Of a stretch of 64,000 nucleotides of DNA, positions 12,350 to 59,338 are shown piece after piece. Position 1 is the stretch's first letter. Each line of letters opens with the position of its first letter. The notes beneath the pieces are model-generated. The model was not told the origin of the DNA, searched no databases, and saw only the letters and a list, made by a program, of their open reading frames with translations. This DNA is from a virus. The DNA is taken from the IMG/VR virus record IMGVR_UViG_3300032083_003484, positions 12,685 to 76,684 of that record, one strand, 5' to 3'. Made by a program: the position numbers and the translations under genes.

Positions 12350-15300
12350 TTTTTAAGAAGTCCTTGCTTACTTTTGTGCAGATCTTATTTTGTATTTTTA
12401 CAGGCTTGAAGACTATATCTCTAACTTCCACTTCCCCAACCAGGCCTAGCGGCCCGGCTTCGTCTTCTTCTGAAGCTATTTCTTTTTGGACTTCCTCTAC
12501 AGAATAACTAGTTGCTTCATTTATAATGTTTGGAATTGGCAGCATACAAGATAAGAAAATGTTAATAGAGGCGTTGGCTTTAAAGTCGCTAGCTAGTTGC
12601 GAGGTGTTGTTAGATAGCATTAGGTTTGAGATCAGTTGGTTATCTTGAGTCTCTTGCGGGGTGTTTATTTCTCTTTCGAATGAACAAAGCTCAGTCATTA
12701 TGAAACCCGCACCGTTGATCCCAAAGATTGGAGCTTCAGCAGCTGCCAAGATTGTGCTTATTTTCTGATCTCTATATAGGCCTAGTGTTTTTGTCTCTGA
12801 GCTGATCATATTGAGTTGGTCAATTGCTTGCTCGGGGGGCCTCGGGAATTCGCTAGAAAGGAATTTGGTCAGATAGGAACTAAGTACTCTATATTTCATA
12901 GAGACATTAAAGTTATTGAAAACAAAGTCTTCTAAGCTATCCTCAGACTCAGTAAGGGTTTGGATACTGGCCATAAGATTTTCGGTTTCAAACAGGTCGT
13001 CATGACCCAGGAGAACCGGATTGCCATTTTTAATGTTTAAGAAAACTAATCGCTGGAGTTCCATCTTTGAACCAACAGCCCTCTCGGCAGCTGTTGTTTC
13101 ATCGGAAGAAGGGAGGAGATCGTTCTGGTCAACGTCTTCCAGCGATGTTGCTAGGGTGCTTTCTGATTTGAGTGTAACTTTATAAGATAAGTTAGAGACT
13201 AAAAACGATGTCTTCCCCCTCGGGCCGTCAGCATCAGCGCCTCTGGTTAAAAATGGGCCAAAGTCTTCTTCGGCCAGTACAGCATCTTCAAGTAACGGCG
13301 TTTTAAAGTTGTATATAATCGAAGCCGGCTCGGTGCCTTCGATGGCTGAATAAAGAAGTTGGTTCTCTGAAGACATGCCTGTAGCAAATGAGCCAGACAC
13401 AGAAGAGGCGGCTTCATCTATCAGTAAGAACATTAGATCTTGAGGTGTAGCACGTCGACCTAGTGAGCGACTTAGAGAGGATAGTTGACCGGTTATTTTT
13501 GCTATCTCGTATACATAATAAGAGATGGCATTCCAGCCATAGATTTTATTATTGAGATAATTAACCTCAAAATCAGAAAATAGTGTATTGATTTTTACTT
13601 TTACCTTTTGTGCTGCGCTCGAACGATTATAAATAGATGTTGAGAAGTCGTTGATCGACAGGATATATCCTGCTGTATTTAGAACCGCAAATCTTAAATG
13701 GGCGTCCTCAAGAAGGATACATGTAAAGATTGTTTTTATGTTTTCTTTTATAGATGCAATTTCATCATCTGTTTTTGTCAATAAAAGCTGAGAATATTCT
13801 GGAAGTTCCTTGATAAATCTTTTATAAGTCATTTCTTGCTTTAAAGTTCCGTTCAGATAATCTTCCATTACGACTTCTAACTGCGAAGATGGTAGAAGGC
13901 TTGAGGAGCTTCCTTTGGGTACCTCTTCATTCCCGCCTAAAAGTTCAGCAATCCCACCTTCGTCCAAGCTAATACCGGAATTTTCCAACTTGATTCTTAG
14001 AGAAGCAGCAGCTATACTTTTACCCGTCGTTTCCATTTGTCTAGCAAACGTATCGAAGTCGACCTCTTCATTGAAAGAAATCTTATCCAAAGCTTGTTTG
14101 ACCAACTGACCTTCTTTTATTCTCTCGATACTTAACGCACCGGAGGCACGATTGGTCTCATCTCCATTTACCAAGCCTCTAAGAGGCGACTCGGGGTCTG
14201 TTTCAGAGTTGGCAATAGCTATCCCTAGAGGTTCTGAGACTTCTTCCTCATAAAAACTCACCCCTATATCAAAGCTTTTCTTGTCACTATTGTTGATCTC
14301 TGGATTTCGATCTATGATTTGGTATGCTAGTTCTCTTGGCTCTACCGGCATCTCATCTAAATAAAATAAATTATTCCGGAATGCTAGATCGATTGCGTCA
14401 CTAATAGGGATTTCCGGAATAATCTCGGATATCGTTTTTGGTTCGGCTAGAAGCCTCAAGGGAGAGCCTAGTCTAGTGATCTTATCCTCATATCTTCTTG
14501 ACCTTTCTATAAGGGACGTACCATACGCTGCAACGCATGCGTCTAGACTTCCTAGTGTTGCCTTTATATTATCTTCGTGAAGTTCTCCTAGGGTCTCCTG
14601 GTCTCTGTTTAGGGCGAATTTTGGTGTGTTCTTAATTACCGGTAGTTCATTGGTTTGTCCGGCAGCTGCCAACTGTGGGATTAGCAGTGAAGGGTGGGCT
14701 TGGTTTGGAAGTTGGTCTTCTATCTCTCTTGTAAGGCTTTCTGGATCTGTAAGGTATTTAAAGATCTTTGCGGCATCGTCTTTATCTGCTTCTCTCTGTT
14801 GCTGCAAGATTCTTTCTAGCTCCTCTCTTAGTGCTGGGTTTGGCTCTGTGCACAGCTGATCAATCAAATCAGAAATATTAGGATCTGAACATAAGTCTAG
14901 GTTGTTAACAAAGCCGTTTGCGCTCAGGCCCGGTAGTTGGGGTGAGAAGCCATCTAGTGTGTCAAGCAAGTCGCCTATTCCAATGATACTACCCATTGCT
15001 GAGCCGGCATCTGAAAGGATACTTGGGTTTAGCCTTATTTCTGATGCCAAATCGGAATTGATTGCTCTGAAATAGACGTCTGCTCTTTGGAGGGTGTCCT
15101 CACTGACATCGCCATCAAGTAAGCGTGCTAGATCGGGTCCAGGTAAAATGCCTTTTCCGCAAGCATCTTTAAAAAAGTTGAGCAAGTCACGATTGTTTCT
15201 TTGGTTGCCTATTCTCGGTGTTAAGACACTACAGGCAGCGACAGAAGGCAGGTCGACACCATCTAGACCAGCACAAATAGCACCGGCAAGAGTTTGGCCA

Positions 15301-39684: not shown

Positions 39685-39687
39685 TAG

Positions 39688-39995
39688 TGGAGATGTGGGG
39701 AGTCGAACCCCAGTCCTTAAAACTTAAAATCAATCGTCATTCACAAAATTAGTTAGTCAACCACCCGACTAACAAGCCACCTCGTACAACGAGGGTATCT
39801 ACATTAAATAGAAACAAATTAACAAAAAAGCAACTTTGGATAACAAGGCAGTTGCCGCCCCCTGATTATGCTGCTAACGCAACAGAGTCAAATTCAACGT
39901 TATTGTTGGCAATTATTTTTTTTCTGGTTTTCGTATGTCCAGCCAAGCTTTTGCACGATTTATTTTTTATTCCAAGTCGAAGCCAGTGCATCCCC
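39688..39995 (-). ncRNA. ssrA: tmRNA; tag peptide ANNNVEFDSVALAA (39866-39910)
   Basis: 5' GGGGATG..CTGGCTTCGAC, 3' GACTGGGG-TTCGACT-CCCCA CATCTCC A with G3.U70; AATAATT-GCC resume context; tag ends ALAA-stop. Confidence 0.93.
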
Positions 39996-44754: not shown

Positions 44755-45284
44755 TAGATACAGATCTGTTCGCTAATTCTATCACTATTGCGAGTTACTG
44801 CTTCCGATAGTAGATCAGCACGTCTAATGATCCGACGAGCATAAGCTCTAGATCTAGGTGTGCACTGATTTCCAGCATTATAATGACAGAGAGGATCAGC
44901 CCACTCTTGTTGGTGATCTACAGAGAAAAGCTGGAACGGCTCTGTTGAGATCGATCTAGAAAACCTATAATGAAAATCTTTTACCGCATTGACTCCATCC
45001 TTAATTAAATCACAATTCTCCAATCTTCCTTCTTCACAAAAGTATCTAGGATTGATCTGCAATGGTCCGTGGCAACAACCTGTGTAAGAAACAACTCCTT
45101 TTTGAAGTCTAGATTCTTCCCAGGCTACCGATACAGCAATTAGGGGTGAAACATTTCTAGCAATTGCTTCACTAGCAATCACCTCACAAGTATTAAACCT
45201 TTCAGGGTTCAGGACATGATCTGGAGTGTTTAGTACTCCAGCAGTAAAAAGGATATAGCAAATCCCATAGCTTAACTTAACCAT
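44754..45284 (-). CDS. Lytic transglycosylase (SLT/lysozyme-like)
   Basis: AVSVAWEESR, GPLQIN, HYNAG motifs. Confidence 0.75.
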   Translation of the reverse strand: MVKLSYGICYILFTAGVLNTPDHVLNPERFNTCEVIASEAIARNVSPLIAVSVAWEESRLQKGVVSYTGCCHGPLQINPRYFCEEGRLENCDLIKDGVNAVKDFHYRFSRSISTEPFQLFSVDHQQEWADPLCHYNAGNQCTPRSRAYARRIIRRADLLSEAVTRNSDRISEQICI

Positions 45285-46206
45285 TGATAATCTCCGTTTT
45301 GTATTTAATAACTGCTAGTTCTTTAGCCTTAGCTTCTACCATAATATGCATATTGTTATTATAGTTATTAATAGTATTATATATATAGTTAGAATGTTTC
45401 TCTTCTCTAATCTTAATATTGTTCTGTTCTTCTCTAGCTGACTCTGAGTAATGTACCACAGGGGTGATATCCCCCCAGGTCGACAAAGCTAGTTCTAGCG
45501 CATCTTGTTCAGACTGACCTCCTGTACAAAGCTTGTGATGGTGGTAATCAAAAACAATAGGGATCCCAGTTTGTTCATGAACCCCTTCGTAAAGATCTTT
45601 TGTTGAGTAGAGAGAAACCTTATCATCATTTTCCACCGTTAGTCTTGATCTAACTGCTGGAGAAAGTTTGTTTACATTCTCACAAAACGTTTTCAGAGCA
45701 CTTGGCTTGTCTCCATAAGCAGCACCAACGTGAATGTTGATTTTAGCCCAGTGATCTCTTGGGAGACCCATCAAATCCATAACCTTGCCGTGAATCTCCA
45801 AATCAGTAATGGTGTTTTGGACTACACGCTCTTTAGGTGAGGCCAACTTGTTGAAAGGCCCAGGGTGGTATGTAAGTCTATGGTTGTGCTTTTTAGCAAA
45901 GTCACCAACTTCTTTTAGCTTCTTAGAGATCTCCTTGATGTCCGGCATATCATCAATGTTGTAATGAGATGCCCAAGGAAACATGTTAGAACTCATTCGA
46001 AAAAACTTTACATTGTTTTGCTCATTCCACTTGACAATCTCAAGCAGGTCTGTTATATTTAGTAGAGTTAGTTGAGAGGCATAATGGATACCCTTCGCAT
46101 CAAAAGTTTTTTTAATCATTGTTCTGTTAGTAGTGATGCGTTGACTCTTAGGTCGTTCACTGAAACCCATGTTAATGCAAGCGTAGCCGATATAGTCGCT
46201 ATTCAT
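45277..46206 (-). CDS. uvsE: UV damage endonuclease
   Basis: IGYACIN, FRMSS, RLTYHPGPF, INIHVG, LTVENDD, IVFDYHHH, HYSE, MVEAKAKE. Confidence 0.92.
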   Translation of the reverse strand: MNSDYIGYACINMGFSERPKSQRITTNRTMIKKTFDAKGIHYASQLTLLNITDLLEIVKWNEQNNVKFFRMSSNMFPWASHYNIDDMPDIKEISKKLKEVGDFAKKHNHRLTYHPGPFNKLASPKERVVQNTITDLEIHGKVMDLMGLPRDHWAKINIHVGAAYGDKPSALKTFCENVNKLSPAVRSRLTVENDDKVSLYSTKDLYEGVHEQTGIPIVFDYHHHKLCTGGQSEQDALELALSTWGDITPVVHYSESAREEQNNIKIREEKHSNYIYNTINNYNNNMHIMVEAKAKELAVIKYKTEIING

Positions 46207-48274: not shown

Positions 48275-49099
48275 TTATAAATAAGGCTTGACAATGTTAT
48301 TTGCCCTTAGAAAATTATTTATAATAGACGGACGAGCTGAAATTCCAAAACTATCAACAGAAGAATTTGAAGCAACTTGCAATCCAAACAGTTTTTCACC
48401 TAAATAAATTGCAGATCCGGATTGACCAGAAGATGTGGGAATAGAATGCATGAAAAAGTTGTTTCCATCTAAGTTATTTGGAAGCTGACAAAAGTCGTCA
48501 CACCAACCTCCCCAGTATCCTTCAAACAAAAGCAGCCCAAAAGAAGGAAACGTGCGGAAAAACCCTCTTGGTGCGCCCCAATTGCGAAGTTCAGCAAAGA
48601 TTTTTATGTTTTCTTCATCAGCAATAGCATAAATTTCATGATCAAAGTCGCCTTGAAGCCAAATCAAGCATAAATCAACATCCGGATTTTGCGCAACCAC
48701 CCAGCCATCACCGGTTTCGCCCGCCAAGTTCTCACCAGAAAAAGAATATTTAAAATTAACGCTATAATCAATGTGCTCTGGCTCCGGCCCAAACAAATCT
48801 TCGGGGTCAGAATGGCAAAAATGATCAACAGTTAAGATAAAACAGCCGTCTTCATCGCTTTTGATACAAACACCGCCGGCAGACCACCAGCCATAAGGTA
48901 TTTCATTGCCCTCAAAACGCATTGTAAGCGCTTTGGAGAGTTGAACATAGGCAAGGGCCGGGACAAAACCTTCGGAGGCAGCAGAAGACGTTTGAGGAAG
49001 ATTGTTTCCTTTACAATCAAACAAAGAAAAACAAAAAATCGCAATAAAAATCATTCGCCGCATAAAATAAATAGAAACCGCAAGTAAAAATAACCACAA
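48275..49099 (-). CDS. Trypsin-like serine protease, probably exported
   Basis: LTVDH, DLCLI, GQSGS catalytic motifs; hydrophobic N-terminus. Confidence 0.75.
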   Translation of the reverse strand: MWLFLLAVSIYFMRRMIFIAIFCFSLFDCKGNNLPQTSSAASEGFVPALAYVQLSKALTMRFEGNEIPYGWWSAGGVCIKSDEDGCFILTVDHFCHSDPEDLFGPEPEHIDYSVNFKYSFSGENLAGETGDGWVVAQNPDVDLCLIWLQGDFDHEIYAIADEENIKIFAELRNWGAPRGFFRTFPSFGLLLFEGYWGGWCDDFCQLPNNLDGNNFFMHSIPTSSGQSGSAIYLGEKLFGLQVASNSSVDSFGISARPSIINNFLRANNIVKPYL

Positions 49100-49356: not shown

Positions 49357-50508
49357 TTATAGACCCAAAGTCTCTTTTACGACTGCAGCAATTGTTTCTT
49401 CTAAAGAAAGTTCTTCGTTTTTGCGATATCTTTCATCTGGTCGCCTAGGAAACATAGATCCTCGCCTAGTGGCTGTCGCCGGCGTTGGGTTTGGTGATGA
49501 GCCGGCCATTGATCCTCGCTTTGGAAGTTCATAGTCCAAGTCGATTCCGGGCTCCATAAGGTCGGCATCCGGATCTTCTGGCATACCCTGGTATTCGGCG
49601 TCCTCATAGTTCATAAGATCATCTATAGCGCCCTCAGCTTCTTTCTCGCTCCGAAATCGGAACCCAGGCCGAACGTTGTGTATTTCTTTAAACATATCTG
49701 AAAAAAGATCGTTTAGATAATCCAAGCCCATTTCCGGCTTGGCTGTTTCGCCTTCTCGGATATCGCCGGGCTTCACACCACCAGCAAATGCGATTCGAAG
49801 AGTTTTCTTGACGCCTTCATCACCTGGAGAGTGCAGCCATCGATCAATTCTTTCACGTGACCGAGAAATTTCACGACCAACTTCTCCGACAGTGTTATAA
49901 CCAAGCTCGACACGCAGTTCCTCGACTGACTTTGGATCGGCCGCAAACTGATTTAGGGTAACAATTTTTTGCCGATCGTTGAGGTTGACTTTGTCATCCT
50001 TGATTGCTTGGACCATAGCATCGAAAGCTTCATTGCGCTCTTTGTCAAGAAGAATCTGCTCGGGGTTCTTAATTTTTGGAACCAACGGATAGATTTCGCT
50101 CTTGTCGGACATACTTGTGATATCCGGCTCGCCTTCAGCTGCGCCGCCACCGGCAAAAGGAAGCTCTTTGCGTCCTGCTCGGAAACTGTCAATTAATGCA
50201 TTTTTCACAATAGCGCCGGCCCAAGTGGAGAATGCAGAATCTCCTCGGAACCCACCAATTTGAGTCATGATTTTGATAAGGGCGCTTTGCATTGCGTCCT
50301 CGGCGTCAGCTTCGTTTCCGCCGGCTAGCTTAAGCGCAAGAAAACGATGCTTTTTTGAAAGTCTGGTTAGAAGTTCTTCCATTGCCGGACTATTTGGGTT
50401 TTCTTTGGCTTTGGCAGCAAGCGCTTCCATGCTGTCCCCTTTCTCTTCATCAATGCGTGCAATCTCCTCTTGGATGATTTGCAGCAGCCTAGTTTTCTTG
50501 ATTTTCAC
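49357..50508 (-). CDS. ECF (group 4) sigma factor with N- and C-terminal extensions
   Basis: sigma2: ADAEDAMQSALIKI..GGFRGDSAFSTWAGAIVKNALIDSFR; sigma4: LNDRQK..SVEELRVELG..VGEVGREISRSRERI; N-terminal MKIKKTRLLQIIQEEI tag. Confidence 0.88.
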   Translation of the reverse strand: MKIKKTRLLQIIQEEIARIDEEKGDSMEALAAKAKENPNSPAMEELLTRLSKKHRFLALKLAGGNEADAEDAMQSALIKIMTQIGGFRGDSAFSTWAGAIVKNALIDSFRAGRKELPFAGGGAAEGEPDITSMSDKSEIYPLVPKIKNPEQILLDKERNEAFDAMVQAIKDDKVNLNDRQKIVTLNQFAADPKSVEELRVELGYNTVGEVGREISRSRERIDRWLHSPGDEGVKKTLRIAFAGGVKPGDIREGETAKPEMGLDYLNDLFSDMFKEIHNVRPGFRFRSEKEAEGAIDDLMNYEDAEYQGMPEDPDADLMEPGIDLDYELPKRGSMAGSSPNPTPATATRRGSMFPRRPDERYRKNEELSLEETIAAVVKETLGL

Positions 50509-50560: not shown

Positions 50561-50590
50561 AAAAAAGCCCCGCCGAAAAAGGCGGGGCTT
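50561..50590 (-). terminator. Rho-independent terminator
   Basis: AAGCCCCGCC-N6-GGCGGGGCTT + U-tract. Confidence 0.8.
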
Positions 50591-50611: not shown

Positions 50612-50872
50612 TTAGAAGTCTATGCCGTCATCGTTTGCCGGGAGGGCTTCGGAAGTTTCCGCATTTCTTAGCGCATCAACTTCTGCATTTGCGTGAGCGG
50701 ATGCCTCATCGACATCAGCACCGGCAGCTTCGGCTTCTTCGAAAGCGCTTTTCCAAAATTCCCACTCTGCGTCGGTAAGACCTTCAATTGGCATGGGGCT
50801 TTTGGATTCGGCAAGAGCAGCCTCAAGCTCTTCTTTGATAATCTTGACAAGTTTTTGTTTTGTGATTTTCAT
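50612..50872 (-). CDS. Acidic protein with MKITK...IIKEE tag (putative internal head protein)
   Basis: MKITKQKLVKIIKEELEAALAE. Confidence 0.6.
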   Translation of the reverse strand: MKITKQKLVKIIKEELEAALAESKSPMPIEGLTDAEWEFWKSAFEEAEAAGADVDEASAHANAEVDALRNAETSEALPANDDGIDF

Positions 50873-50893: not shown

Positions 50894-52474
50894 TTAATCC
50901 AAGCGAGCAAGTCGTGGGTTTGGGGCAATTGAAAGCTCGGCATCACCAATAAGCAGCACTTCACCTTCGGTCCAAGCAACAAGCGGGATTGGGTTTCCGT
51001 TAACAGCGTCGTGCCCGCCGGAACCAATTGTTGGGACAGCAGAAACACCAAAGTTGGCCAAGGGTGAAAGCTCATTGGCGGCGCAAAGCCCATCTTGATT
51101 AAAATCTTGCCAAACAACCAACCCAGAAAAAATTTTATCATTTTTTGTTATAAGGTTGTCCATGTCTAAATCAAAAGAAGCAAGGTGGTCAAATCCGTCG
51201 GTCCAATCGCCTTGAACGTTTCCAAAAAGTTCTGCGCCGGAAGTTATAACGCCATCACCATTCCAATCATAAGCCAAAAAGCCGTCGCCACCATTAGGCC
51301 ATGCAATTGCTTGTTCTCGGCCAATGTTGTATAAGTCAAAGTTAACTCCATCAACAATCGAGCTTAATTCGATACCGTCGCCATCCAAGTCAATCACCAA
51401 CGGGTCACCAACGTTGCAAGGAATAACCCGAAACGCCGCAACAGCCGCAAGGGCCATTTCATCTTCCAAGCCTTGACGAACGCCTCGCTCATAATCGATT
51501 TGAGCTTGCGCCCACTGCAATGAAGCTTCGGCATTTGGTGGGGTATAGTCAGAAGCACAAAGAGGCTCGGCTTCCATGGCCATTCCAAGGCTGCCAAGGG
51601 CGTTGCTCATTGCCGGTTCGATAAAAGCTTCATTAGCATCGCAGATCTCGATAATTGGCATTTCAGGATAAGAAGGAGCAAACCCTCGTCGCTCCAATTC
51701 CAAATTAAAAGTTTGCGCAAAGTGCTGCCGACCGATTGCAATGCCTTTTATATAAGAGCTTTCCACCGGTGTGGGCTCAACGCTACAAAGGCCTCGGTTC
51801 ATTAGGTCGAAGCGAACCCGAACACGGTTATCTTCCAAGGCGCTAATTGCTCCTTGCTCATACCAAAACTGGGCCTCCTCAAAATGAATAGAGCCGGCGA
51901 TCGCACTTGTTAGCGGCGCAGCGTCCAATTCTTGTGTTAGGCTAGAATAAACTTCCACTTTTGCCATGTCCGCAAGATAATCGCAGGAAACCGAATTTGC
52001 TTGTTCAACATTATCGTAAAACTCCACAAAAGGGCAATCCGTTATTGATGCATCCAATCCGGCAAATAAATCTTCGTGAGAAAGGTTATAGTCCATTATA
52101 ATGTTGAGGTTTTGCAATTGAATGGCCATTTGGTCCAAGTAAAGCTCTGTGCCCAAATTCAAACCAATATTAATAGAGTCTCGGAGAATCTCGACCCGTT
52201 GAAGCTCGTCGGCGCTAAGGTCTTCTGCTTCCACGAAAGGATCGGCAGGGGGGTCAACAGGAGGCTCGACAGGAGGGTCAATTGGGTCTGCCGGGGGATT
52301 GGCAATTGGAGGTCGATCATCAGGTTGGGTGTCGATCGGTGGGTTGTCGACAGGCTCACAGCAGGGTCTAGGTTCGTTTGTTGTGCCTTCATATGAAATG
52401 TCCCCATCCGCAGCACAAGCGCCCATCACGCCAACCAAGCAAGCAGCGATAACGGTTGTTTTATAATTTTTCAT
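50894..52474 (-). CDS. Lipoprotein with C-terminal FrpC-type self-processing module
   Basis: Lipobox VMGA-C, Pro-rich linker, then DPLVIDLDGDGIE...DGFLAYDWNGDGVITSGAELFG...LVVWQDFNQDG..ANEL. Confidence 0.75.
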   Translation of the reverse strand: MKNYKTTVIAACLVGVMGACAADGDISYEGTTNEPRPCCEPVDNPPIDTQPDDRPPIANPPADPIDPPVEPPVDPPADPFVEAEDLSADELQRVEILRDSINIGLNLGTELYLDQMAIQLQNLNIIMDYNLSHEDLFAGLDASITDCPFVEFYDNVEQANSVSCDYLADMAKVEVYSSLTQELDAAPLTSAIAGSIHFEEAQFWYEQGAISALEDNRVRVRFDLMNRGLCSVEPTPVESSYIKGIAIGRQHFAQTFNLELERRGFAPSYPEMPIIEICDANEAFIEPAMSNALGSLGMAMEAEPLCASDYTPPNAEASLQWAQAQIDYERGVRQGLEDEMALAAVAAFRVIPCNVGDPLVIDLDGDGIELSSIVDGVNFDLYNIGREQAIAWPNGGDGFLAYDWNGDGVITSGAELFGNVQGDWTDGFDHLASFDLDMDNLITKNDKIFSGLVVWQDFNQDGLCAANELSPLANFGVSAVPTIGSGGHDAVNGNPIPLVAWTEGEVLLIGDAELSIAPNPRLARLD

Positions 52475-52521
52475 TAATTTCTCCTTTATAATGGTGTTTT
52501 TATCGATAGTTTCGAATTTTT

Positions 52522-52869
52522 TTATAAGCTTCCACCTAATTCACGTGTTATTCGATCGAAGAGCCAGTCGAAAGGGTCACCGTCTCTTGCCTTCTGCGTG
52601 CCATATGGCATCTCTCCGTTCTCACTATAGTGTTTGAGGAGCATATCATAGGGGCTGACCTCATATCCGTGTGAATCTTTGCGGTAAGCCGTCTCGAATT
52701 CTCTATCATCGCCATCAAGGAAAGCTAGGGTCGCTTCAACCTCTTGGGGATTGAAGCCATACAGAAACTTAAGCCGAGCCCGATTCATGTCACCACCTTC
52801 AGTTTCATGCATAACAGCAGAAATTTCTTCTTTAATAACTCCAATTAGGTATTCTTTTGTGATTTTCAC
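52522..52869 (-). CDS. MKITK...VIKEE-tagged protein (putative internal head protein)
   Basis: MKITKEYLIGVIKEEI; late motif at 52913-52922. Confidence 0.6.
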   Translation of the reverse strand: MKITKEYLIGVIKEEISAVMHETEGGDMNRARLKFLYGFNPQEVEATLAFLDGDDREFETAYRKDSHGYEVSPYDMLLKHYSENGEMPYGTQKARDGDPFDWLFDRITRELGGSL

Positions 52870-52949: not shown

Positions 52950-53504
52950 CTAAGAGGTTTGTTCGTCGGAAAGAAAAGCCTCAACGGGCCGGAACATTAC
53001 CACAACGGCAAAATTTGGTGTTTCATAGTACATCCCATCGGCCATACCAGGATTTTTTATCCATTTTCCTTGGTTTTCGGTGCCCCAAGCGCCTTGTTGC
53101 CATCCGGAAACCTTTTTTAGCACCTGATCCATGTCAAGAATGTTATAGTTTTCTTTTCGGACTGCCGCTTTCACCCCCTCCGGGTCATCGACAAGATTAT
53201 AAATGTCGGCCGTGGGAACGTTTGCTGTATAAAGCGCCTTGCTAGCGAAAAAACTTTCTTTCTCTGCTGGATTCACATAGAAAAACGTGCGAGGAACCGC
53301 CGAAATCGCCAAATCTTTTTTTGAATAACCCATTTTTCCGAATTTCTCTGGATCAAGCAAGATTTTTTCTTTTGCGTTCTCCGGAGATTCTTGAGTAAAG
53401 TGGTATAGCGTTGTATTGCCCCCTTCGGAAGGAATGCGTTCCTCTGAAGCTTCAACCAAAATCTCCTCAACCAAAGTTTCAAGGTAGTGCTTTGTGAGCT
53501 TCAT
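52950..53504 (-). CDS. MKLTK...LVEE-tagged protein, possible ADP-ribosyltransferase fold
   Basis: Tag followed by TLYHFT...TFFY...LY...DG; late motif at 53536-53544. Confidence 0.5.
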   Translation of the reverse strand: MKLTKHYLETLVEEILVEASEERIPSEGGNTTLYHFTQESPENAKEKILLDPEKFGKMGYSKKDLAISAVPRTFFYVNPAEKESFFASKALYTANVPTADIYNLVDDPEGVKAAVRKENYNILDMDQVLKKVSGWQQGAWGTENQGKWIKNPGMADGMYYETPNFAVVVMFRPVEAFLSDEQTS

Positions 53505-53834: not shown

Positions 53835-54266
53835 CTATACCTCAGTGAGCTTGTATTTCTTTCCATCGATCTCAACAAACTTTCCGGTGTAGCTTTGTGT
53901 TTGCTGCCGGTGTTGTTCTTCGGTCAAGCGATCTCCGTTTAGATACCATTCTTTGCGTCCGTCAGCATATTCAGCAGCCGGGCCGTCTTCACGGTGGGGT
54001 TTTCCATTCAGCCACCATTCTTTGGATCCGTTGGCCCATTCAACAGCCGGGCCATCTTCACGGTGGGGTTCTCCGTTTAGATACCATTCTTTGCTTCCGT
54101 CAGCATATTCAGCAGCCGGGCCGTCTTCACGGTGGGGTTTTCCATTCAGCCACCATTCTTTGGATCCGTTGGCCCATTCAATAGCCGGGCCGTCTTCACG
54201 GTGGAGTACTCCATTCAGCCACCATTCTTTGCCCTTGGGCCACACTTTTACTTTATATTCAATCAT
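53835..54266 (-). CDS. HREDGPA-repeat protein, class A (4 repeats)
   Basis: 23-aa repeats; MIEYKVKVW start; EIDGKKYKL end. Confidence 0.85.
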   Translation of the reverse strand: MIEYKVKVWPKGKEWWLNGVLHREDGPAIEWANGSKEWWLNGKPHREDGPAAEYADGSKEWYLNGEPHREDGPAVEWANGSKEWWLNGKPHREDGPAAEYADGRKEWYLNGDRLTEEQHRQQTQSYTGKFVEIDGKKYKLTEV

Positions 54267-57068: not shown

Positions 57069-57503
57069 TTATACCTCTACTAGTTTGTATTTCTTTCCAT
57101 CAATCTCAATTACTTTATTTGCGCATCCTTGAGTTTGAGCTTGGTGTTCTTTTTCGGTAAGATTCTTTCCGTTTAGATACCACAGTTTGGTTCCGTTGGC
57201 ATTTTCAACAGCAGGGCCATCTTCACGGTGGCACTTGTCGTTTAGATACCACACTTTGGTTCCGTCGGCTAACTCAATAGCAGGGCCATCTTCACGGTGG
57301 AGATCTCCGTTTAGCCACCATTCTTTGGATCCGTTGGCCCTTTCAACAGCAGGGCCATCTTCACGGTTAAGCTTTCCGCTTAGATACCATTCTTTGTGTC
57401 CATTGGTATACTCACAAGCAGGGCCATCTTCACGGTGGTACTTTCCGTTTAGATACCATTCTTTGTCTCCGTTGGGCCACACTTTTACATTATATTCAAT
57501 CAT
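57069..57503 (-). CDS. HREDGPA-repeat protein, class A (4 repeats)
   Basis: 144 aa. Confidence 0.88.
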   Translation of the reverse strand: MIEYNVKVWPNGDKEWYLNGKYHREDGPACEYTNGHKEWYLSGKLNREDGPAVERANGSKEWWLNGDLHREDGPAIELADGTKVWYLNDKCHREDGPAVENANGTKLWYLNGKNLTEKEHQAQTQGCANKVIEIDGKKYKLVEV

Positions 57504-57504
57504 T

Positions 57505-57939
57505 TTATGCTTCTACTAGTTTGTATTTCTTTCCGTCGATCTCAATTACTTTGTTTGTACATCGACTAGTTTGATCTTGGTGTTCTTTTTCGGTAAGTTG
57601 CTTTCCGTTTAGCCACCATTCTTTGCCTCCGTCGGCTAACTCAACAGCAGGGCCATCTTCACGGTGGCGCTTGTCGTTTAGAAACCACAGTTTGGTTCCG
57701 TTGGCTAACTCAATAGCAGGGCCATCTTCACGGTGGAAATTTCTGTTTAGCCACCATTCTTTGTCTCCGTTGGAGCGCTCAACAGCAGGGCCATCTTCAC
57801 GGTGGAGATCTCCGTTTAGCCACCATTCTTTGTCTCCGTTGGCCCTTTCAACAGCAGGGCCATCTTCACGGTGATACTTTCCGTTTAGATACCATTCTTT
57901 GCTTCCGCTGGGCCACACTTTTACATTATATTCAATCAT
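57505..57939 (-). CDS. HREDGPA-repeat protein, class A (4 repeats)
   Basis: 144 aa. Confidence 0.88.
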   Translation of the reverse strand: MIEYNVKVWPSGSKEWYLNGKYHREDGPAVERANGDKEWWLNGDLHREDGPAVERSNGDKEWWLNRNFHREDGPAIELANGTKLWFLNDKRHREDGPAVELADGGKEWWLNGKQLTEKEHQDQTSRCTNKVIEIDGKKYKLVEA

Positions 57940-57940
57940 T

Positions 57941-58306
57941 TTATGCTTCTACTAGTTTGTATTTCTTTCCGTCGATCTCAATTACTTTGCTTGTGCATCC
58001 TTGAGTTTGAGCTTGGTGTTCTTTTTCGGTAAGCTCCTTTCCGTTTAGGAACCACACTTTGTCTCCGTCGACCCTTTCAACAGCAGGGCCATCTTCACGG
58101 TGATACTTTCCGTTTAGCCACCACATTTTGTCTCCGTTGGCCCATTCAACAGCCGGGCCATCTTCACGGTGGAGATCTCCGTTTAGATGCCAAGATTTGT
58201 GTCCGTTGGCAAACTCAAGAGCCGGGCCATCTTCACGGTGAAGCTTTCCGTTTAGAAACCATTCTTTGGTTCCGTTGGCATGCACTCTTACTTTATATTC
58301 AATCAT
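57941..58306 (-). CDS. HREDGPA-repeat protein, class A (3 repeats)
   Basis: 121 aa. Confidence 0.88.
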   Translation of the reverse strand: MIEYKVRVHANGTKEWFLNGKLHREDGPALEFANGHKSWHLNGDLHREDGPAVEWANGDKMWWLNGKYHREDGPAVERVDGDKVWFLNGKELTEKEHQAQTQGCTSKVIEIDGKKYKLVEA

Positions 58307-58307
58307 T

Positions 58308-58673
58308 TTATGCCTCTACTAGTTTGTATTTCTTTCCGTCGATCTCAATTACTTTGTTTGTACATTGACTAGTTTGATCTTGGTGTTCTTTTTCGGTAAG
58401 CTGCTTTCCGTTTAGATACCACCATTTGGTTCCGTTGGCCCTTTCAACAGCAGGACCATCTTCACGGTGGCGCTTTCCGTTTAGCCACCATTCTTTGGTT
58501 CCGTTGGTATACTCAATAGCAGGACCATCTTCACGGTGGCGCTTTCCGTTTAGCCACCATTCTTTGTCTCCGTTGGCCCTTTCAATAGCCGGGCCATCTT
58601 CACGGTGAAGCTTATCGTTTAGATACCATTCTTTGGCTCCGTTGGGCCACACTTTTACTTTATATTCAATCAT
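58308..58673 (-). CDS. HREDGPA-repeat protein, class A (3 repeats)
   Basis: 121 aa. Confidence 0.88.
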   Translation of the reverse strand: MIEYKVKVWPNGAKEWYLNDKLHREDGPAIERANGDKEWWLNGKRHREDGPAIEYTNGTKEWWLNGKRHREDGPAVERANGTKWWYLNGKQLTEKEHQDQTSQCTNKVIEIDGKKYKLVEA

Positions 58674-58674
58674 T

Positions 58675-59040
58675 TTATGCCTCTACTAGTTTGTATTTCT
58701 TTCCGTCGATCTCAATTACTTTGTTTGCACATCCTTGAGTTTGATCTTGGTGTTCTTTTTCGGTAAGCTGCTTTCCGTTTAGCCACCATTCTCTGTGTCC
58801 GCTGGCTAACTCAATAGCAGGGCCATCTTCACGGTGGAGAACTCCGTTTAGCCACCATTCTTTGGTTCCGTCGGCTAACTCACGAGCAGGGCCATCTTCA
58901 CGGTGGAGAACTCCGTTTAGCCACCATTCTTTGTCTCCGTTGGCCCTTTCAATAGCCGGGCCATCTTCACGGTGAAGCTTATCGTTTAGATACCATTCTT
59001 TGCGGCCGCTGGGCCATACTTTTACTTTATATTCAATCAT
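58675..59040 (-). CDS. HREDGPA-repeat protein, class A (3 repeats)
   Basis: 121 aa. Confidence 0.88.
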   Translation of the reverse strand: MIEYKVKVWPSGRKEWYLNDKLHREDGPAIERANGDKEWWLNGVLHREDGPARELADGTKEWWLNGVLHREDGPAIELASGHREWWLNGKQLTEKEHQDQTQGCANKVIEIDGKKYKLVEA

Positions 59041-59041
59041 T

Positions 59042-59338
59042 TTATGCTTCTACTAGTTTGTATTTCTTTCCGTCGATCTCAATTACTTTGCATGCACATC
59101 CTTGAGTTTGATCTTGGTGTTCTTTTTCGGTAAGTTTCTTTCCGTTTAGATACCATTCTTTGTGTCCGCTGGCTAACTCAATAGCAGGGCCATCTTCACG
59201 GTGGCACTTGTCGTTTAGATACCACAGTTTGGTTCCGCTGGCATACTCATTAGCAGGGCCATCTTCACGGTGGCGCTCTCCGTTAACAAACCAAAATTTG
59301 TCTCCGTTGGGCCACACTTTTACTTTATATTCAATCAT
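59042..59338 (-). CDS. HREDGPA-repeat protein, class A (2 repeats)
   Basis: 98 aa. Confidence 0.88.
   Translation of the reverse strand: MIEYKVKVWPNGDKFWFVNGERHREDGPANEYASGTKLWYLNDKCHREDGPAIELASGHKEWYLNGKKLTEKEHQDQTQGCACKVIEIDGKKYKLVEA

Follow-up and report, generated by a model that had tools for sequence, protein, structure and literature searches.

FrpC and FrpA of Neisseria meningitidis and ApxIVA of Actinobacillus pleuropneumoniae contain a homologous self-processing module (SPM) with clip-and-link chemistry. In FrpC and ApxIVA, Ca2+ binding leads to folding of the SPM and to breakage of an Asp-Pro bond via a cyclic intermediate, and the product is an aspartic anhydride, which either hydrolyses or acylates lysines in its vicinity (PMC7078468, PMC7846742, PMC12538545). 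At the Ca2+ levels of the cytosol the SPM is unfolded, and it contains a T-shaped Trp pair; D456 and three EF-hand-like loops of FrpC bind Ca2+, and FrpC D419/D421/D423/G424 form an incomplete EF-hand (PMC7078468). In searchable papers, the SPM has been described only in repeats-in-toxin (RTX) proteins of pathogens secreted by the type I secretion system (T1SS) and as the NeissLock protein-ligation tool. Here, we report a gene for a predicted phage lipoprotein whose C-terminal module is, with high confidence, a complete FrpC-type SPM. The gene lies in a 64,000-nucleotide stretch of DNA (hereafter, the window; positions 12,685 to 76,684 of IMG/VR virus record IMGVR_UViG_3300032083_003484).

A word-indexed search returned 159 full-length homologues of the encoded protein (33-98% identity); with the family of helical-head SPM lipoproteins, identity was 33-75% and covered at least 83% of the length, the six-Cys head included. 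Residues are called invariant with reference to alignment A1 of 31 homologues, in which the Asp-Pro junction is among them. The gene and the parts of its product are as follows.

50894..52474, minus strand: whole gene (526 codons plus stop), encoding a lipoprotein with a helical head and a C-terminal SPM
52415..52474, minus strand: signal peptide with lipobox, residues 1-20 (MKNYK..VMGA before C20; PROSITE-type lipobox pattern)
52229..52414, minus strand: disordered Pro/Asp-rich linker (the stalk), residues 21-82 (from sequence and low predicted local distance difference test [pLDDT] values)
51407..52228, minus strand: all-alpha head domain, residues 83-356 (AlphaFold2 domain model)
51401..51406, minus strand: predicted scissile bond Asp357-Pro358 (aligned to FrpC D414-P415)
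50897..51403, minus strand: SPM, residues 358-526, the end of the protein (phmmer, Foldseek, phrog_3677)
51374..51391, minus strand: first Ca2+ loop, D362-L-D364-G-D366-G367, equivalent to FrpC D419/D421/D423/G424 (D362 and G367 invariant)
51230..51268, minus strand: EF-hand-like loop D403..E415, equivalent to FrpC D462..E474 (D403 and E415 invariant)
51137..51172, minus strand: EF-hand-like loop D435..D446, equivalent to FrpC D499..D510 (D435 and D446 invariant)
51071..51106, minus strand: EF-hand-like loop D457..E468, preceded by W455, equivalent to FrpC D521..E532 and W519 (W455, D457 and E468 invariant)

The module was identified by both sequence and structure. A phmmer search against all PDB sequences matched only the two FrpC SPM entries (6SJW, E value 3.6e-21; 6SJX, E value 6.8e-21), with residues 357/358-496 aligned and D357-P358 placed on FrpC D414-P415 (A415 in the mutant). 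An AlphaFold2 model generated from the 31 homologues (mean pLDDT, 81; folded parts mostly >90; SPM region, ~85-97) was matched to 6SJW by Foldseek (E value, 1e-10; probability, 1.00; template modelling [TM] score, 0.73; 177 of 179 target residues), and identity to the FrpC SPM was 34-36% in the Foldseek alignments. D397 aligned with FrpC D456, the Trp pair W392/W455 corresponded to FrpC W451/W519 with both residues invariant, and the equivalents of the SPM Ca2+ ligands were retained, most of them invariantly. The module was also matched by phrog_3677 (labelled "protease"; E value, 5e-13), which was the sole PHROG match for the protein. PF26745 was precomputed on all 159 homologues, including the 98%-identical P0002, and the name in the ESM Atlas is "SPM" (Pfam 38.1); a Pfam scan of the phage protein itself gave only a sub-threshold EF-hand_5 match, and NCBIfam and PADLOC scans of it gave no match.

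A sequence-only reading of this locus, made earlier by a model from the letters and a list of open reading frames (ORFs), had proposed a phage lipoprotein with a FrpC-like SPM. Its account of the gene was exact: the ORF (50894-52474, minus strand) is open throughout its 526 aa, the quoted peptides DPLVIDLDGDGIE, YDWNGDGVITSGAELFGN and VVWQDFNQDGLCAANEL are located at residues 357-369, 402-419 and 453-469, respectively, and the lipobox, the Pro-rich linker, D357-P358 at 51401-51406 and a C-terminal part given as about 170 aa (169 residues between D357 and the stop) were all found. Its claim that the motif order follows the FrpC-type SPM was borne out by the phmmer alignment, and the structural match to the SPM, which it had set beforehand as a test, was obtained with Foldseek.

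With FrpC, FrpA and ApxIVA, the phage protein shares the homologous SPM and its fold, the Asp-Pro boundary, the Ca2+ ligands and the Trp pair. The phage SPM is 169 aa long (177 aa in FrpC) and C-terminal, whereas that of FrpC and ApxIVA is internal; the phage protein has an N-terminal lipoprotein signal (Sec), whereas the FrpC/ApxIVA class uses type I secretion and has no N-terminal signal peptide. The phage cargo is a helical head unrelated to that of FrpC, Asn419 takes the place of FrpC D478, and the gene is carried by a phage. RTX repeats were not found in the phage protein (no HemolysinCabind or other Pfam match at E values up to 1), and no T1SS genes were seen among the annotated ORFs of the window. 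The lack of RTX repeats, the chain-ending SPM and the N-terminal lipoprotein signal thus place the protein outside the FrpC/ApxIVA class of RTX exoproteins. Sequences labelled as phage that contain an SPM-like stretch also include phrog_3677 and a protein of MT835772.1 (L040:2141-5476; human faeces, phage origin unverified). The latter is an open-ended ORF of >1100 aa with a VDP junction, an SPM and GGxGxD repeats; unlike the phage lipoprotein, it has the classical giant RTX layout and no lipobox.

The N-terminus of the phage protein (MKNYKTTVIAACLVGVMGA followed by C20) conforms to the PROSITE-type lipobox rule (K2, K5, hydrophobic h-region, VMGA before C20). The pattern was matched by the phage protein and by 28 of the 31 homologues, and Cys20 was invariant in all 31 aligned. 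The export route would be Sec followed by the lipoprotein pathway, with Cys20 as the predicted site of lipidation. The stalk beyond it is Pro/Asp rich at residues ~35-80, had pLDDT values <50 across most of residues 10-76 and differed in length and sequence between family members of the 31-homologue alignment.

The head (residues 83-356) was modelled as a confident all-alpha bundle of six long helices (pLDDT, 91.5; predicted TM score, 0.89) with six invariant Cys residues and an invariant Lys243. Six invariant Cys fit an extracytoplasmic protein. As parts of the overall explanation favoured here with moderate confidence, the head would be disulfide bonded and the whole would be an exported, lipid-anchored envelope protein. 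A profile search of the head against PDB sequences found nothing, and Foldseek gave no match under an E value of 0.2. A relationship to ICMT was considered and rejected, the best VIA-align Z score (6.0 over 114 residues) being at noise level for helical bundles. The head is therefore left without a fold assignment, and these searches do not establish a new fold. An exhaustive HMMER scan of 1.8 billion proteins returned only 63 head relatives (representatives at 50% identity); an SPM stood behind the head in all inspected relatives, and most of the others were of full-length size.

Lysines, the acceptors in FrpC-type linkage, are scarce in the phage protein: its Lys content (1.1%) is the lowest of the 34 window proteins (mean of the other 33, 8.3%). 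Lys243 is the only invariant Lys among the 31 sequences. The depletion and the invariant lysine could mean either that self-reaction is avoided or that the chain has a dedicated acceptor for an intramolecular link. An intramolecular staple, by which the Asp357 anhydride and the protein's own Lys243 would lock the C-terminal helix to the bundle and yield a hyper-stable envelope protein, agrees both with the unique conservation of Lys243 and with the few acceptors left in so Lys-poor a chain. Lys depletion is not family-wide, however (0.4-6% across the family), and Lys243 lies within a conserved ESSxxKG motif that is possibly purely structural. We consider such a staple very unlikely.

For the junction survey, 178 family proteins were fetched, 154 of which had the junction motif. 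The junction was Asp-Pro in 148 of these (96%), Ser-Pro in four, Thr-Pro in one and Glu-Pro in one, and the median number of residues after the junction Asp was 171. Together with the scan of head relatives, these counts indicate that the head and the C-terminal SPM form one fixed architecture. In six members, Asp was replaced and the rest of the SPM motif was kept (Ser-Pro in P0161, P0168, P0169 and P0175; Thr-Pro in P0163; Glu-Pro in P0037); these may be natural non-cleaving or differently cleaving variants. From the conservation of the junction and of the Ca2+ ligands, self-cleavage of the phage protein at Asp357-Pro358 is likely.

Cleavage could also serve removal of the SPM only. In this case the SPM would be a self-removing C-terminal propeptide, acting as a Ca2+ sensor or as an intramolecular chaperone; the head would stay inactive or export competent until its arrival in a Ca2+-rich compartment, and the anhydride would hydrolyse with no covalent partner. 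The position of the SPM, always at the end of the protein and a median of 171 aa past the Asp, is what would be expected of a removable propeptide; without a docked nucleophile the anhydride hydrolyses by default (NeissLock papers), and the Ser-, Thr- and Glu-Pro members suggest an extra role independent of the Asp anhydride. Against this, Asp-Pro is kept in 96% of the members with a junction motif, and the module of FrpC and ApxIVA does ligate (PMC7078468). A further argument against a propeptide alone, and one that suggests a docking target, comes from the genes beside the bacterial homologues.

Cellular members of the family were found at 24 loci in metagenome-assembled genomes (MAGs; species-representative genomes) of Myxococcota, Bradymonadales and "Deltaproteobacteria," and viral members on 14 IMG/VR contigs. 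The two sets were cleanly apart in GC content (MAG loci, 53-70%; viral loci, 35-45%). The lipoproteins of Myxococcota and Bradymonadales (e.g., L003:3096-4757, 56% identical) are homologous to the phage protein over the full length, with the same lipobox, stalk, six-Cys head, Asp-Pro junction and SPM; they differ in being encoded on high-GC chromosomal contigs and in usually having an adjoining gene for a beta-propeller lipoprotein, and the phage copy has neither. Clustering of the ORFs of all loci placed this propeller gene beside the SPM gene in 18 of the 24 MAG loci (directly downstream on the same strand in 16; upstream on the opposite strand in 2). Its product of ~600 aa (example gene, L003:4870-6726) comprises a lipobox, an acidic Pro-rich stalk, a Big_7 immunoglobulin-like domain and a PQQ/BamB-like beta-propeller, whose score below the BamB equivalog cut-off indicates that it is not BamB itself. 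The gene was absent from the five phage records searched (that of the window included; one 93% complete and three 42-66% complete).

The propeller lipoprotein is the best candidate docking target of the bacterial heads. This proposal is drawn from the gene neighbourhood, from analogy with FrpD-FrpC (PMC5233953) and from the NeissLock principle (PMC7846742). In the FrpD-FrpC pair, as in the bacterial relatives here, the gene for a clip-and-link protein adjoins that of a lipoprotein able to dock its N-terminal part. Here, by comparison, the SPM protein is a lipoprotein in its own right, the neighbouring beta-propeller is unrelated to FrpD, docking is predicted, and the phage lacks the neighbour. 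With the second lipoprotein gene at 18 bacterial loci set against it, we regard the propeptide-only explanation as rather unlikely, though it deserves to be taken seriously.

The viral carriers are real phages. The record of the window is a 76.7-kb IMG/VR virus (42% complete), and the window encodes a gp6-like baseplate wedge protein, PhoH, glycosyltransferases, a transfer-messenger RNA (tmRNA) and four tRNAs. Two other carriers encode a large terminase, as does the relative with the 98%-identical copy (169 kb, 93% complete), and in another carrier group a primase and an SbcC-like protein adjoin the SPM gene.

In a maximum-likelihood tree of 43 sequences, the clade of the window was nested, with starred support, within MAG sequences. 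Of the sequences in a bacterial-type context, L003 was closest to it (56% identity; the propeller gene lies downstream), and a Bradymonadales sequence came next. A second, deep and well-supported clade of ten viral sequences stood elsewhere on the tree with the architecture unchanged, L027 grouped with another MAG sequence, and the label "viral" changed at least three times on the tree. The GC content of the SPM gene is 48%, against 41% for the window. The nesting, the number of changes and the GC contrast suggest that high-GC cells served as donors repeatedly, with phages apparently acquiring the gene from Myxococcota-like bacteria on more than one occasion. The only host lead, a weak one, is likewise to Myxococcota, from the gene tree and the tmRNA tag: the tag of the window's tmRNA (39687-39995, minus strand), ANNNVEFDSVALAA, resembles ANSDVEFALAA and ANDNVDFALAA of two carrier MAGs (tags of family-carrying Myxococcota MAGs, ANSDVEFALAA, ANDNVDFALAA, ANDNAFALAA and ANDSNYALAA).

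Near-identical copies (91-99%) of the phage gene were present in several marine metagenomes, and the ratio of nonsynonymous to synonymous substitution rates (dN/dS) against near-identical phage variants was 0.09-0.16. This ratio indicates that the phage copy is kept by purifying selection, from which it follows that the gene does something for the phage during infection. A passenger gene that is functionless in the phage, or a module that is inactive, would be in line with the host-like sequence of the gene, its raised GC content (48% versus 41%) and the lack of a phage-encoded partner. It is hard to reconcile with the low dN/dS among phage variants from several metagenomes, with all key SPM residues being intact and with the second deep viral clade, in which ten contigs have the same architecture, and we hold it to be highly improbable.

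Further observations concern the phage variants. In one metagenome contig (L047:2-1288; Ga0257114_1051308), 37 of 39 amino-acid differences fall inside SPM residues 436-523, a pattern suggestive of a mosaic C-terminal half produced by recombination among SPM alleles. In the second viral clade, a gene for a cytidylyltransferase-like protein (GGFDPxHxGH) directly follows the SPM gene in L031 (11395-11862), L034 and L037, lies within a few kilobases downstream in L028 and L030 and has a copy upstream in L036. This enzyme is not a candidate partner. Sugar-nucleotide and glycosyltransferase genes are also present in the window (~23-34 kb) and are common to both phage groups. A 380-aa gene downstream of the SPM gene in L030 is not homologous to the gene for the sigma factor near the SPM gene in the window.

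Our overall explanation, to which we give moderate confidence, is that the protein is a lipid-anchored SPM protein that cleaves itself and may link to a partner in the host envelope. The chain would be exported unfolded by Sec and then lipidated. Once in the periplasm, where Ca2+ is abundant, or beyond the cell, the SPM would fold around four or five Ca2+ ions and break Asp357-Pro358, so that the 169-aa SPM would be released and the stalked, lipid-anchored head would keep a C-terminal aspartic anhydride. The anhydride would then either hydrolyse or acylate an amine close by, in which case an isopeptide bond would join the head to a partner. Because the phage lacks the propeller gene, its copy would act on a component of the host envelope. 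A functional covalent link of the head to such a component is proposed only tentatively, by analogy with the FrpC-type systems.

Some phage-encoded envelope lipoproteins, namely T5 Llp and phi80/N15 Cor, serve to exclude superinfecting phages or to mask receptors; they are small and act non-covalently. As phage genes for lipoproteins of the host envelope, these offer a plausible functional analogy, and PHROG, PADLOC and NCBIfam scans gave no sequence-family match of the protein to phage exclusion lipoproteins (Llp, Cor) or to defence-system proteins. The sequence-only reading had likewise imagined covalent stapling to host surface proteins, with receptor blocking, superinfection exclusion or cell adhesion as its possible purposes. 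In its most far-reaching form, the family would be an enzyme-free, Ca2+-armed covalent tether of the Gram-negative envelope, with which phages irreversibly lock or mask a host surface component. The amine could then be a Lys of the propeller lipoprotein or a peptidoglycan stem-peptide amine, and covalent superinfection exclusion or envelope stabilisation until lysis could be examples of its use. We think this general form unlikely.

Several points weigh against the overall explanation of a self-cleaving and possibly linking envelope lipoprotein. First, FrpC D478 is replaced by Asn419 in the phage protein; a section title of Kuban et al. 2020 (PMC7078468) states that D478 and D579 are not catalysts of cleavage, and a passage of its text places both in a modelled fifth Ca2+ site. 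Second, the distant members with Ser-, Thr- or Glu-Pro imply that cleavage is not indispensable to the fold family. Third, no recognisable fold relative of the head was found by profile, Foldseek or VIA-align searches. Fourth, the class of partner is suggested only by the gene neighbourhood of the bacterial members. Finally, the link between the phage and a Myxococcota host is weak, with a GC gap of 12-27 points.

The expression signals around the gene are as follows.

52481..52486, minus strand: Shine-Dalgarno sequence AAGGAG, 6 nucleotides (nt) before the ATG (from sequence)
52502..52510, minus strand: ACTATCGAT, a variant of a promoter-like motif with 2 mismatches versus ACTATTTAT, 27 nt before the ATG
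50565..50590, minus strand: intrinsic-terminator-like hairpin (10 bp, 8 of them GC, with a T-run), the predicted end of the transcription unit, 3' of the 86-aa downstream gene

Exact ACTATTTAT occurs nine times in the window, always on the minus strand (8603, 21286, 41163, 43918, 48241, 50541, 52913, 53536 and 60245), against 0.68 occurrences expected. Start codons follow seven of the nine sites at a distance of 18-44 nt; two large baseplate-block genes and a sigma factor are among the genes concerned, and ACTATTTAT may represent a phage promoter class. The hairpin is the only strong terminator-like hairpin nearby, and its position only after the 86-aa downstream gene suggests that the SPM gene is likely co-transcribed with the flanking small genes.

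The placement of the SPM gene among ACTATTTAT-preceded genes, a motif that also stands before baseplate genes, would suit a protein of the virion or of its assembly that staples parts of the phage to one another, and covalent cross-links are known in some capsids. Stapling to virion parts had also been entertained in the sequence-only reading. That suggestion fared poorly, since a protein exported as a lipoprotein, by its signal peptide and invariant lipobox, leaves the cytoplasm in which virions assemble. An oxidising compartment would suit the six invariant Cys, the homologous genes in cells are ordinary genes for chromosomally encoded lipoproteins, and the SPM is unfolded at cytosolic Ca2+ (PMC7078468). 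We give a virion role scarcely any credence and retain the host envelope as the proposed site of action.

The neighbours of the SPM gene in the window are small genes with a common N-terminus in their products (MK(I/L)TK..L..IIKEE) and a gene for an extracytoplasmic function (ECF)-type sigma factor (Sigma70_r2; E value, 6e-11). Four proteins encoded nearby (49357-50508, 50612-50872, 52522-52869 and 52950-53504, all minus strand) share an amphipathic N-terminus, MK(I/L)(T/K)K..L..(I/L)(I/V).EE, and are otherwise unrelated; one of them is the ECF-type sigma factor, and the SPM lipoprotein lies between them without this N-terminus. Two segments (53835-54266 and 57069-59338, minus strand) encode arrays of proteins composed of 23-aa HREDGPA/"KEWWLNG" repeats with a weak MORN_2-like signal (E value, 0.006). 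Also on the minus strand are a UvdE UV-damage endonuclease (45277-46206; E value, 3e-67) and a trypsin-like peptidase (48275-49099; Trypsin_2; E value, 7e-7).

No paper linking the SPM to phages or to lipoproteins was found in the searchable literature. The statement that no such module had been described in a phage thus holds for searchable papers and fails for databases, in which the domain and viral SPM proteins are already covered (Pfam PF26745 in release 38.1; phrog_3677); in the ESM Atlas, one cluster of SPM proteins 559 aa long has the label 100% viral.

The finding places the SPM in a different setting, at the C-terminus of Sec-exported lipoproteins of environmental Myxococcota and of marine phages. 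If the phage protein cleaves and ligates, it would be the first case, as far as found in print, of autocatalytic anhydride chemistry brought by a phage to the host envelope. The bacterial two-lipoprotein cassette would then be a natural binder-target pair from which the purpose of clip-and-link could be learned, and compact 169-aa modules from organisms living in seawater (Ca2+, ~10 mM) may interest protein engineers.

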